Source of the DNA: Candidatus Saccharimonadota bacterium
GTDB lineage: Bacteria; Patescibacteriota; Saccharimonadia; CAILAD01; BJGX01
DNA: 64,000 nt
Reading direction: 5' to 3'
NCBI GenBank assembly: GCA_016191105.1
Contig: JACPPH010000004.1
Location: 1,230 to 65,229, forward strand
Part shown: one piece after another, positions 56,122-58,701 of the stretch
How the letters are laid out: every line of letters starts with the position of its first letter
Position numbering within the stretch: the first letter of the stretch is position 1
The notes under the pieces: model-generated
The model's input: the letters and a program-made list of their open reading frames with translations, nothing else
Database searches by the model: none
What the model was told of the DNA's origin: nothing
Translations under genes and position numbers: made by a program

Positions 56122-56192
56122 ACTTCAAAAATCTAAGCTTATCTGGTATAATCCACCACTGAGTACCCAAGAGCCCAAATAAAGGGGGAGTG

Positions 56193-56369
56193 ATGAAGAA
56201 GGTACTGTTCATTGTTGGTCTGATTGTCCTGGGTGGGTTCTTTCTTGTGCTGCGTAGCGGTAGAAGTAAGTACCCTTCGGGATGTTGTCCAAGATGTGGT
56301 AGAGAGCTGGTGGGGGACAAGTATGAGACATACAAGTCGTGCCCCAAGCACGGCTTGTATATTCCATGA
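56193..56369 (+). CDS. Micro-protein: transmembrane helix plus zinc ribbon (58 aa)
   Basis: RBS aaagggggag. Transmembrane helix, then CCPRCG...CPKHG. Confidence 0.45.
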   Translation: MKKVLFIVGLIVLGGFFLVLRSGRSKYPSGCCPRCGRELVGDKYETYKSCPKHGLYIP

Positions 56370-56381
56370 AGGAGGATAGGT

Positions 56382-56576
56382 ATGATCCGTCGATCCTGGC
56401 CATTTGCGATCGTCGCGGGAGTGGCGTTCTTCTGGCAGCGTTCAAGAAGCCGATGCCATGACTGCAAGAAGGGACGCATGCGACGGTCGGAGCTTCACAG
56501 CCTCCGCAGTGGCCGTTGGTGTACGAACTGCGGCAGACGAACTGACACAGTTCCGGCGTTGAGCTGGCGGTTCTAG
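56382..56576 (+). CDS. Micro-protein: transmembrane helix plus zinc ribbon (64 aa)
   Basis: RBS gaaggagga. Transmembrane helix, then CHDCKKG...CTNCGRR. Confidence 0.45.
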   Translation: MIRRSWPFAIVAGVAFFWQRSRSRCHDCKKGRMRRSELHSLRSGRWCTNCGRRTDTVPALSWRF

Positions 56577-56800
56577 TGCAAGGTGCATACGAACAGCTGC
56601 GCGTAAAGGTTGCGCTCACGGACGGATGTGCCAACCTAAAACGTGCCGAGGGTCTGGAGGGTGGCCGCATGGTCTTCTTTCGCTGGCACAGTCCAGTTAA
56701 TGGCCGAACGTTTCATATCTACGGCTTCGGCTCTAGCCTCGACGAGGCCGCAGCCGAGGCCCTGGAGTGGGAAGGATTCAAGCAAGTCCAAGACAAGTAG
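56576..56800 (+). CDS. Small hypothetical protein (74 aa, GTG start)
   Basis: The GTG overlaps the upstream stop. Confidence 0.35.
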   Translation: MQGAYEQLRVKVALTDGCANLKRAEGLEGGRMVFFRWHSPVNGRTFHIYGFGSSLDEAAAEALEWEGFKQVQDK

Positions 56801-56825
56801 TTCGAGACCCGAAAAGGGGGAAGCA

Positions 56826-57059
56826 ATGAAGTGGAAGGTAGTACTGTTGACCGTGGGGGCTGTGACGGCAGCTGTAGCTGTTGTTGTGCTCAGAGCCCCT
56901 CAGGCCGATACCAGGACGAACCGCAGACGGCAGAGGGCCAACGACCGAGCCAACCGGCTCTATGGCGGCGTCTACGGCTCGTGCTCTCCGGGTCCTCGCC
57001 GGCCCATCCTGCAGTCACTGTTCGACCCAAGCCCAACGGGGGTCTTGAGCCCCCACTAG
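56826..57059 (+). CDS. Small single-transmembrane protein with Arg-rich tail (77 aa)
   Basis: RBS aaaagggggaag before the ATG. Transmembrane helix, then RTNRRRQRANDRANR. Confidence 0.4.
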   Translation: MKWKVVLLTVGAVTAAVAVVVLRAPQADTRTNRRRQRANDRANRLYGGVYGSCSPGPRRPILQSLFDPSPTGVLSPH

Positions 57060-57078
57060 TCACCGAGGAGGTGAGAAA

Positions 57079-57165
57079 ATGAAGAAGCTCGTCTTCGGGC
57101 TTGTCTGCTTCGCCGCTGGAGTGTTCGCTGGCATCGTGGGGCAGGCCATCTACGAGACGAAGTGA
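57079..57165 (+). CDS. Micro transmembrane peptide (28 aa)
   Basis: RBS ccgaggaggtgag before the ATG. MKKLVFGLVCFAAGVFAGIVGQAIYETK. Confidence 0.3.
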   Translation: MKKLVFGLVCFAAGVFAGIVGQAIYETK

Positions 57166-57189
57166 AGGACGGGGTAACTCGTTGTTCAC

Positions 57190-57225
57190 AAGAAGGGGCA
57201 CGACTACCTAGGTCGGCCCCTTCTT
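57190..57225. terminator. Hairpin between convergent genes
   Basis: aagaagggg-N18-ccccttctt (9-bp stem). Confidence 0.45.
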
Positions 57226-57228
57226 CGA

Positions 57229-58701
57229 TTATGGAGCTTCGTTGGTGGTGGGTTTTTGGGCTTGAGCGTAATCGCTACCTAATATAACCTCAAAATCGAC
57301 AGTTGGGTTTTTAACCGGCTCGGGCGGTTGACTAACTTTTACGCCAGTGCCAACCATTTTTTCTAAATATGCAGCTGTGTTAGGCTTTTGGCCGCCGGTG
57401 TAATCGATAATCTGGGTGGCGGTGGCATCTTTACTACTGGCATTACCGACTGATTCAATAGTTACTATGTCGCCATCGGCGTCGATCCTGCTCTTGAGCT
57501 TGAGAGCCAAGCCAACCGTGGTGGTGCCGTTTTTGATTGTCGCGTTTGATTCCTCTTTCCAAACTGGGCCAAGACTGAATATGTCTTTTACAAAGGCCTG
57601 AATGTTGTCGAAGTTACCGGCCACTGGTAACAAGTCAGAGCTGTATGGATCTTGCTTTAAAAACCCGTTAGGTTTGGTCGAGAATACCACACTTATAAGA
57701 TCGCTGGTTTTAACATCTTTGGTAAGGTCGCGCAGACGCATCATGTTATTGAGGCTGAGATCGGTTTTTACATTGTTGCCAACGGTATTGATTAGGTTTG
57801 TAACTTTGGCCGGATTAGACAAGGTTTGTAGGCTTAGAGCCTTCTCGCGCATGGCCTGCAATACCTGTTGCTGTCGAGCAGCTCGGCCATAATCGTCGCC
57901 GCAGGTACCTTTGCGACAACGAGCATATTTGAGAGCTGTAGTGCCATCCATGCGGTAATCGCCTGGTTTTAGGTTGAAGCCACAGGTACGCCACTGGTTG
58001 TTGTCGCAGGGGTATTCTGGATCGCTCAAGCTATCATTATTTCGTATGTCTACGCCGCCTACGGCATCAACAGCTTGTTTGAGGCCAGTAAAATTAGCAG
58101 TAACGTAATATTGGATAGGAATGCCTAGAGTTTCGCTTACGGTCTGCTCGGCTAGTTGTGGCCCACCGTAGGAGTTGGCTTGGTTTATTTTGGCATAGCC
58201 TTGGCCAGGTATATAAACTCGGGTGTCACGCGGAATGCTTATGAGCGAAACCTGCACAGGGTTGGATTTGGTATTAACGCTCATAACCATATTGGTGTCA
58301 CTGAGTTGTTCACCATCGTGTCCAGGGTCGCCAACACCGAGTAGCAAAATGTTTACCCGGCCCTCGTTTTCGCCCTTGAGTTTACCAAAATTAAAAGGAT
58401 TGGTTGAAATTTTGGAGACCTGAAGCAGGGCATAGATGGCATAGGCAATTGCGGCTGCCAGCAGCACCAAAAAGACGGTAAGTAGTACCTTCTTCCAACG
58501 CTTTTTCTTCTTTACGGGTTTTTCGAGGTTGTTTTTCATATCGAGCGGATCGGCCGGTTCTGTTGGGGTATCGGCTTGCACGGTCGGATCAAAAATAAAG
58601 TCGGGATCTGTTTTTTTGCCTGTCCGCCGGCTGGCGGATTTAGCCTTGTCGGCCTCGGGGTCGTAGGTAAATGAAGGCTCTGGTCGCTTTTTCTTTTTCA
58701 T
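57229..58701 (-). CDS. LCP-family (LytR-CpsA-Psr) cell-envelope phosphotransferase
   Basis: N-terminal transmembrane helix, LCP core (NILLLGVGD...SDTNMVMSV...SIPRDT) and a C-terminal LytR_C-like region. Confidence 0.8.
   Translation of the reverse strand: MKKKKRPEPSFTYDPEADKAKSASRRTGKKTDPDFIFDPTVQADTPTEPADPLDMKNNLEKPVKKKKRWKKVLLTVFLVLLAAAIAYAIYALLQVSKISTNPFNFGKLKGENEGRVNILLLGVGDPGHDGEQLSDTNMVMSVNTKSNPVQVSLISIPRDTRVYIPGQGYAKINQANSYGGPQLAEQTVSETLGIPIQYYVTANFTGLKQAVDAVGGVDIRNNDSLSDPEYPCDNNQWRTCGFNLKPGDYRMDGTTALKYARCRKGTCGDDYGRAARQQQVLQAMREKALSLQTLSNPAKVTNLINTVGNNVKTDLSLNNMMRLRDLTKDVKTSDLISVVFSTKPNGFLKQDPYSSDLLPVAGNFDNIQAFVKDIFSLGPVWKEESNATIKNGTTTVGLALKLKSRIDADGDIVTIESVGNASSKDATATQIIDYTGGQKPNTAAYLEKMVGTGVKVSQPPEPVKNPTVDFEVILGSDYAQAQKPTTNEAP

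Follow-up and report, generated by a model that had tools for sequence, protein, structure and literature searches.

Results

Genes and signals at the locus

The window analysed here is a 64,000-nucleotide (nt) stretch of a Candidatus Saccharimonadota bacterium genome (contig JACPPH010000004.1, forward strand), in which positions 56193-57165 of the + strand hold a GC-rich micro-protein operon of five tightly spaced open reading frames (ORFs). These encode proteins of 58, 64, 74, 77 and 28 amino acids (aa), here called m1 to m5, at a coding density of about 94%; an initial annotation, made from the sequence alone, had listed the same five sizes, and all five frames are indeed present. Strong Shine-Dalgarno (SD) sites lie 5-8 nt 5' of the ATG in four of the five: m1 (56193-56369) follows AAGGGGGAG, m2 (56382-56576) starts 12 nt past the m1 stop behind a perfect AGGAGGA, m4 (56826-57059) follows AAGGGGGAAG and m5 (57079-57165) follows GAGGAGGTGA. 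As had been claimed, m3 (56576-56800) has no SD site of its own. It begins with a GTG that overlaps the m2 stop codon in TAGTG, sharing the G, which is the arrangement expected for translational coupling. The 5' neighbour is an AlkD-like DNA-alkylation-repair gene (55414-56121, + strand; Pfam E 9e-65), and downstream lies a convergent LytR-CpsA-Psr (LCP) gene (57229-58701, - strand; Pfam E 2e-42; stop codon 57229-57231).

The five genes differ in how they have been recorded. In the collections searched, m3 (MBI2798079.1, from a 'Candidatus Saccharibacteria bacterium' metagenome-assembled genome) is the sole ORF of the five with an NCBI accession, m1 and m4 were also called by Prodigal in Logan, and m2 and m5 have been called by no pipeline on record and occur in no collection. 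Logan holds a 30.5-kb contig whose sequence is identical to that of the window. An in-frame upstream extension of m4 (a 138-aa ORF) is not conserved, as the corresponding frame of the related lineage L018 opens only 21 nt before the ATG. An antisense ORF of 153 aa (56209-56670, - strand) spans m1 to m3; it has no conserved counterpart, the equivalent frames of L018 being broken up, and is a GC-rich shadow ORF that could mislead gene callers.

The operon was compared with four other lineages, namely L018, L008 (the same species as L002), L019 and L023. Upstream of m1 lies a + strand promoter sequence (56124-56152) with a -35 box TTCAAA, a 17-nt spacer and an extended -10 box TGgTATAAT, matching 10 of 12 consensus positions plus the TG; it is the single promoter-like match in 55900-57400, where shuffled sequences average 0.4. 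TGnTATAAT recurs at an equal distance in L018, and a TATAAT box heads each island block in L008, L019 and L023. The short 5' leader that follows (56153-56192, + strand), with its SD site, is conserved with L018 at the DNA level: the promoter/leader motif TATAATCCACCnCTGAGTACCCAA agrees at 23 of 24 positions, and the 60-nt promoter/leader block is 82% identical against 40-55% for the island interior. This motif occurs once in the window (0 expected by chance) and was not found as a DNA pattern in the metagenome collection; the leader has no stable fold (z 0.2).

At the other end, two tandem hairpins (57162-57189 and 57190-57225) fold on both strands between the operon and the LCP gene, ending 3 nt before the LCP stop codon. 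Together they reach a free energy of -41.4 kcal/mol (z -7.8 on the + strand, z -4.9 on the - strand), and their region is the sole strongly structured 200-nt window in 55400-58100 (z -5.5). The initial annotation had noted a single end hairpin with a 9-bp stem; in fact the stem of the terminal hairpin is 15 bp (10+5, with one bulge) and a second hairpin precedes it. L018 keeps the pair (z -6.3), and each stem shows compensatory changes (GGGGCACGAC/GTCGGCCCC against GGGGTACGAC/GTCGACCCC). They are likely a bidirectional terminator without a U-tract that serves both the operon and the convergent LCP gene; a consensus terminator scan did not flag them because the T-run is missing. Taken together, the promoter, the five ORFs and the hairpins look like a complete transcription unit.

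Predicted structures of the products

The only globular product of the five is m3, which carries the motif YGFG(S/T)xxxxAxxxAxxW. An AlphaFold2 model from a five-member alignment (predicted local distance difference test score (pLDDT) 88.7, predicted template modelling score (pTM) 0.76) has an alpha-beta-beta-beta-alpha order of elements (H4-14, E18-25, E31-38, E45-52, H55-63), like that of a double-stranded RNA-binding domain (dsRBD). Searches with Foldseek against PDB and viral models gave nothing significant (E 0.01 or worse). The nearest topologies, all non-significant, reach TM 0.45-0.58; they comprise a YcaO subdomain, HPF and several dsRBDs, namely that of RNase III and those of MLE, Loquacious and Dicer-2 (TM 0.45-0.57). 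A PDB profile search returned a weak match to the Dicer-2 dsRBD (E 0.12); there is no Pfam match. The second helix is acidic in all five family members (DEAAAEALEW and similar) where dsRBDs have their basic RNA-binding motif, and for this reason we take the resemblance as topological only.

The other four products are hydrophobic-helix proteins. m1, m4 and m5 open with M(K/R)(K/R) and m2 with MIRR, followed by hydrophobic stretches of 17 (m1), 13-15 (m2), 18 (m4) and 22 (m5) residues, and the tails behind the helix are basic, with net charges counted on the sequence of about +5 (m1), +10 (m2) and +7 (m4). In m1 the hydrophobic helix (about residues 4-20) leads through a basic linker to the knuckles CCPRCG-14-CPKH; in m2 a Trp-flanked hydrophobic segment (residues 6-18) precedes a very basic tail with CHDC-18-CTNC. 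A zinc ribbon is defined by a pair of CxxC(H) knuckles that are spaced by 10-20 residues and sit on a beta-hairpin each. The initial annotation had given both proteins a helix plus a CxxC..CxxC ribbon; the Cys motif of m2 is as described, whereas the second knuckle of m1 is CxxH. Its other two descriptions were borne out: m4 has a hydrophobic helix (residues 5-22) and then a tail with 10 Arg, and m5 is a bare hydrophobic helix. m4 also carries a YGGVY motif and a C-terminal SPH. For m1, AlphaFold2 with a two-sequence alignment predicts a helix at 3-22 and then short beta strands (pLDDT 70, with 65-73 in the strands), too weak for fold searching.

Family searches assigned none of these proteins. 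Pfam, PHROGs, NCBIfam and PADLOC have no model at threshold for any of m1-m5. Zinc-ribbon and zinc-finger profiles of Pfam and NCBIfam stay far below threshold (Zn_ribbon_HMPTM E 0.34, zf-C2H2 E 0.12, HVO_0758 14.5 bits against 70), m1 scores 18.1 bits with Pfam FeoB_associated (PF12669; gathering threshold 27), and the best holin match of m5, to a PHROG holin, has an E of 0.082 and covers the N-terminal 17 residues only.

Conservation in related Saccharibacteria

The initial annotation had proposed looking for the same neighbourhood in other genomes, and the operon is found in five lineages at one locus. All relatives of the LCP protein in the genome collection come from Saccharibacteria metagenome-assembled genomes, and across the five lineages, whose LCP proteins are only 55-84% identical, AlkD-like, LCP, sortase, SfLAP and DUF2061 genes make up the neighbourhood. 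Small ORFs other than homologs of m1-m5 are labelled here tm27, tm32, tm40, tm47, ZnR-A, ZnR-B, p119 and p120. In the window the order is AlkD, m1 to m5 and LCP on the opposite strand. In L018 a 136-aa gene is followed by tm40, homologs of m1, m3 and m4, two copies related to m5 (m5a and m5b) and an opposite-strand LCP gene. L008, L019 and L023 share AlkD, ZnR-A, ZnR-B and tm27, then a sortase gene on the opposite strand. Behind it L008 has homologs of m1 and m3, tm40 and p120, and L023 has an m3 homolog, tm32, an m1 homolog and p119, both ending in an opposite-strand LCP gene; L019 has an m3 homolog and tm47 before its contig ends early. Nearly all of these micro-ORFs have their own strong SD.

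Each of the five window ORFs has a counterpart in at least one other lineage, and in a six-frame all-versus-all comparison with the four other lineages the best matches fall in exactly the m1-m5 frames. Homologs of m3 occur in all five lineages (29-39% identity; shuffle z 29). Those of m1 occur in L018, L008 and L023 (29-38% identity, tblastn E 1.5e-7 to 3e-5; shuffle z 14.6). m2 matches ZnR-A of L019 (38% over 42 aa, shuffle z 7.9, a score attained by 0 of 2000 shuffles), but not significantly the ZnR-A of L008 or L023. m4 and a 91-aa L018 counterpart in the equivalent position have in common MKxKVVL, a basic tail, YGxVY (YGNVY in L018) and a (G/S)PH end (shuffle z 4.8; 4 of 2000 shuffles reach the score). 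m5 is 46-52% identical to two tandem L018 copies, each behind a GAGGAGGTGAG SD (z 8.0 and 5.2). Because they have counterparts in other lineages, we regard m1-m5 as genes and not as chance ORFs or the decayed pieces of a larger gene; in place of a single frameshifted gene, the relatives keep separate small genes, each with its own SD. Both outcomes that the initial annotation had named as refuting its reading, a lack of conservation and one longer frameshifted gene, are thus contradicted.

The family is confined to this locus in every collection searched. An exhaustive hidden Markov model search of 1.84 billion representatives with the m3 profile gave four true clusters (at 50% identity) and a spurious repeat protein, P0004. 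All cluster members stand in one locus, between AlkD/SfLAP and LCP, in the five lineages and with similar micro-ORFs around them, and all database homologs are 53-93 aa long. Profiles of m3, m1 and m2/ZnR-A, run in word-indexed searches over 5.8 billion proteins, retrieved only proteins of this locus; the m3, m1 and m2 profiles found nothing in metagenome and viral contigs, and no paralogs exist elsewhere in the window.

Some details of the relatives' genes are of note. The L018 m1 homolog (2150-2194) has three C where the window has four (tgcccaag versus tgccccaag), and its ORF ends early in SCPSAAT; with one extra C it would read SCPKRGYLIP, near the SCPKHGLYIP of the window. Either the assembly is wrong at this point or a frameshift has occurred very recently. 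The L008 m1 homolog has been called as an 84-aa protein (P0008) under the JGI name 'predicted amidophosphoribosyltransferase', which is probably an annotation artefact of the CxxCG knuckle, resembling a ComF-type N-terminal zinc finger. This call is also over-extended, since a promoter-like TGGTATTAT and an SD ahead of a TTG point to a protein of 53 aa. A soluble protein of 119-120 aa ending in FGVGA (p119/p120; GC at third codon positions (GC3) 0.72-0.75) stands last in the operon at L008 5357-5719, L023 5538-5897 and L020 1091-1450; searches of Pfam, NCBIfam, PADLOC and phage collections gave no match to it. The window and L018 lack this protein and have m4 and m5 in its place.

Composition and divergence of the island

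The initial annotation had set an island of about 60% GC against a backbone of about 45% and taken this to suggest acquisition. The island is GC-rich (0.578, with a peak of 0.61-0.62 in its 3' half, between immediate flanks of 0.45-0.48); the window mean, however, is 0.490 and not 0.45 (standard deviation 0.047 in 400-nt windows), and about 12 other patches reach at least 0.57. Enrichment over the rest of the contig recurs in all five lineages (0.578/0.489, 0.559/0.467, 0.586/0.489, 0.576/0.428 and 0.543/0.432). It includes the third codon positions, with GC3 values of 0.54-0.83 (0.83 in m5) against 0.47 in AlkD; m1 is the exception, being near background GC in three lineages. Structured RNA was considered as a cause of the GC-richness and rejected: there is no Rfam match, folding of the island body gives z values of -2.2 to +0.5, and the terminator alone stands out.

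Other window genes are rich in GC3 (0.72-0.77 against about 0.5), at 13655-14332, 16329-17351, 32871-34139 and 37038-37337; an M19 membrane dipeptidase and a cyclopropane-fatty-acid (CMAS) synthase are among their products, and two lack a Pfam match. The genome is therefore compositionally mosaic, and the island is not its sole atypical patch. Amid these GC-rich genes and within 7 kb lie three tRNA-Ser (TGA, GCT, CGA) and a tRNA-Arg (GCG) gene (12026-12115, 12390-12482, 14464-14540 and 19107-19196). Among the window proteins scanned against Pfam there is no ribosomal protein or translation factor that could serve as a reference for relating GC3 to high expression.

The island is not a recent insertion. 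No flanking repeats surround it, no tRNA gene lies within 37 kb and there is no integrase-like or transposase ORF; tblastn and blastn searches of phages and plasmids with m3, p120 and the whole island found no match, and viral collections gave no DNA or protein relatives either. Its constant place in five lineages rules out recent arrival, so the step from GC-richness to a newly arrived island or element remnant does not hold; an ancient acquisition or allele exchange between lineages is possible. A 27-aa peptide, MKKIAVLAVIAAGGYAFYRKYLGPNAV and variants (GC3 0.79-0.86), stands just before the divergent sortase gene at L023 4099-4182, L008 3457-3540 and L019 2085-2168. Its L023 version scores 25.2 bits (threshold 24) with the actinobacterial DLW-39 family (NCBIfam NF038356), of which we found no mention in the literature searched. 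Actinobacteria are the hosts of cultured Saccharibacteria, and the match may be a pointer to the origin of the island. The window m5 has no DLW-39 match and only a marginal likeness to the 27-aa peptides (z 2.9).

The island has also diverged more than its flanks. Between the window and L018, identity is 84% for LCP, 63% for SfLAP and 57% for a 101-aa neighbour (h101), against 36% for m1, 40% for m3 and 46% for m5. By AlkD and sortase, L019 and L023 are sisters (88-89% identity), whereas ZnR-A is closest between L008 and L023 (65% versus 47%) and m3 between L008 and L019 (66% versus 53%). Lineage-specific acceleration or allele exchange between lineages would explain this incongruence; because the proteins are short, the signal is suggestive only. 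Altogether, the persistent GC-richness and the uneven divergence point to fast evolution of parts of the operon, or to their exchange between lineages.

Discussion

We are highly confident that the five ORFs form a real, conserved, lineage-restricted micro-protein operon. It appears to be inherited within one Saccharibacteria (TM7) subclade, with no detectable relative elsewhere in the collections searched. Saccharibacteria are ultra-small epibionts with reduced genomes, and it is unlikely that several of their lineages would retain an idle operon of five genes at the same locus.

Our best explanation as a whole, to which we give a probability of about one half, is that the operon encodes a co-expressed, five-protein membrane-associated complex with an envelope-linked accessory or regulatory role. 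m1-m5 would be co-expressed from one promoter, with translation of m3 coupled to that of m2. m1, m2, m4 and m5 are predicted to span the membrane so that their C-terminal parts face the cytoplasm; the positive-inside rule and the Cys/His knuckles make this side the most likely one for the tails of m1, m2 and m4. The four may assemble with the soluble m3 into a small complex at the membrane, in which the acidic second helix of m3 could, speculatively, be a partner for the basic tails, and the complex would play an accessory or regulatory part in the assembly or maintenance of the cell envelope. Taken alone, this envelope-related role is tentative and somewhat doubtful: it is drawn from the gene neighbourhood only, and is our best guess because the LCP neighbour is constant and a sortase gene is present in three lineages (L008, L019 and L023).

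Several points weigh against this explanation. The window and L018 have no sortase gene in the locus. The proposed topology and complex formation of m1-m5 have the charge distribution as their sole basis, and the hydrophobic segment of m2, at 13-15 residues, is short. At the position of the fourth m1 ligand the window has His, L008 and L023 have Cys and L018 has Arg, so zinc binding by m1 is not assured. The family libraries assign no function to any of the five proteins, nor do the structure and defence-system libraries. In addition, the distant relatives L003, L005, L006 and L007 (LCP 50-53% identical) have no operon, and a gene for an AAA ATPase of about 407 aa lies on the LCP strand in their LCP-AlkD gap (L003 8003-9223, L005 7446-8672, L006 7441-8664, L007 8315-9541), joined in L003 and L007 by a protein of about 178 aa on the same strand. 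From its sequence we take this ATPase to resemble RarA/MgsA. The operon is therefore dispensable and the LCP-AlkD gap is a variable region. Finally, in L017, a contig of the L008 species (JGI 3300045398), the m1 homolog (L008 coordinates 4829-4990) has one synonymous and four non-synonymous changes, among them a Leu to Pro exchange in the helix and a Cys to Tyr exchange, while LCP in the contigs of this species has 0 non-synonymous and 14 synonymous changes (Fisher p 0.014 for the m1 homolog versus pooled flanking genes). Single-nucleotide polymorphisms inside the micro-ORFs of this species are few and the changes in the m1 homolog all come from this one contig; they may reflect relaxed constraint in that population or low-coverage errors.

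The main rival, in our view unlikely, is that the operon is a conflict module (a toxin/antitoxin system, a bacteriocin with its immunity, or an anti-phage or host-interaction cassette) in which the small membrane peptides would be effectors and the zinc-knuckle and soluble proteins regulators or immunity factors. An arms race with allele exchange would explain why the micro-proteins diverge beyond any flanking gene (36-46% against 57-84% identity), and the incongruent similarities among L008, L019 and L023, the gene content that varies between lineages, the absence of the operon from more distant relatives and its atypical composition in every lineage point the same way. However, small, loosely structured proteins evolve fast without any conflict, and positive family evidence is missing: PADLOC, PHROGs, Pfam and NCBIfam gave no toxin, holin or immunity match, PADLOC, even at E up to 1, matched neither m1-m5 nor two of the relatives' island proteins, and the lysis-gene or antisense-RNA context of a holin or type I toxin is missing, as there is no endolysin gene and the region has no Rfam match. 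One strong, constitutive-looking promoter with strong SDs along the operon is unusual for membrane toxins, the island body shows no antisense RNA signature or unusual RNA structure, and the fixed chromosomal position is unlike that of a defence island. A different proposal, which we hold to be quite unlikely, is a Saccharibacteria-specific membrane micro-protein machine that would tether nucleic acid or an anionic envelope polymer, or mediate host or phage dealings. Its modules would be the zinc knuckles, the Arg-rich tail and the dsRBD-like domain, swapped as cassettes between the conserved promoter/leader and the conserved terminator, and such swapping would explain the persistent GC-richness and the incongruent similarities.

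The composition could also be the trace of a horizontally acquired fragment or mobile-element remnant, for instance from a GC-rich actinobacterial host or its phage, for which a current function is not needed. A GC content that in all five lineages exceeds that of the remaining contig by 9-15 points, the other GC3-rich accessory genes of the window (M19 dipeptidase and cyclopropane-fatty-acid synthase) and the DLW-39 match of the relatives' 27-aa peptide would fit such an origin, but we find it decidedly unlikely: the integrase, transposase, tRNA gene and flanking repeats of an element are missing, phage, plasmid and viral collections have no match, and no homolog of m1, m2 or m3 occurs outside these Saccharibacteria loci among 5.8 to 15 billion proteins. 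Moreover, a locus, intact ORFs, SDs, a promoter and a terminator common to five lineages argue for a maintained function and an old arrival. Very improbable, in turn, are membrane-tethered anti-sigma-like or other transcription regulators with the zinc knuckles as sensor. The N-terminal anchor and Cys-rich cytoplasmic module loosely recall, by analogy, the architecture of the zinc-binding anti-sigma factors, yet m1 and m2 lack the HxxxCxxC motif of that family, the locus contains no gene for a sigma factor or another regulator in any lineage, and Pfam and NCBIfam gave no anti-sigma match. That the ORFs are non-genes, either chance frames or fragments of a degraded larger zinc-ribbon gene, is scarcely credible. 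GC-rich DNA is open in many frames, as the antisense ORF at 56209-56670 illustrates, and m2 and m5 were never called; nevertheless, cross-lineage conservation peaks in the proposed frames despite nucleotide identity near saturation, the database homologs are themselves 53-93 aa, the small ORFs of the relatives are separate with an SD each, and m3 is predicted to fold with confidence.

The locus provides a compact, testable set of orphan membrane micro-proteins beside cell-wall enzymes, of modest practical value at present. Small proteins are systematically missed in annotation, and here m2 and m5 went uncalled and m3 alone has an NCBI accession. The locus also poses a compositional puzzle: it stays GC-rich, third codon positions included, as its sequences move apart almost to saturation.

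The components are of known general kinds, namely Cys-knuckle micro-proteins, single-helix peptides and alpha-beta3-alpha mini-domains; none belongs to a described family and the operon is undescribed. In its predicted structure m3 shares with dsRBDs the alpha1-beta1-beta2-beta3-alpha2 order and a G-x-G turn ahead of alpha2, but its alpha2 is acidic whereas that of dsRBDs starts with a basic KKxAK, and no sequence or structure match is significant. HPF/YfiA, the YcaO subdomain and HicA are likewise alpha-beta-beta-beta-alpha mini-domains with a topology like that of m3; unlike HicA, m3 has no GSH catalytic motif. The FeoB-associated Cys-rich membrane proteins (PF12669) recall m1 in their size class of about 50 aa and in the N-terminal transmembrane helix followed by a Cys-rich motif; m1, however, scores below threshold, has another Cys pattern and has no feoB gene nearby. 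MgrB, AcrZ and KdpF are small membrane proteins that modulate larger membrane enzymes. The helix proteins of the operon resemble them in having a single helix and fewer than 80 aa and in being encoded beside envelope-protein genes, but MgrB, AcrZ and KdpF are single genes with defined partners, whereas the five genes here form an operon and show homology to none of the three. The DLW-39 family matches the 27-aa peptide of the relatives' islands, whose operon position is comparable to that of m5, while the window m5 itself lies outside the family. Finally, there are zinc-finger or zinc-ribbon micro-proteins with C(P)XCG knuckles, such as those of Haloferax volcanii (PMC6562870) and the NCBIfam HVO_0758 family. 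Like them, m1 (CPRCG) and m2 (CHDC...CTNCG) are shorter than 70 aa and have a pair of Cys knuckles as the only recognisable feature. The sole sequence match, that of m2 to HVO_0758, is far below threshold (14.5 bits versus 70), and m1 has CxxH as its second knuckle. The haloarchaeal proteins are soluble and one-domain; m1 and m2 instead add an N-terminal hydrophobic anchor and basic tails to the knuckle pair.

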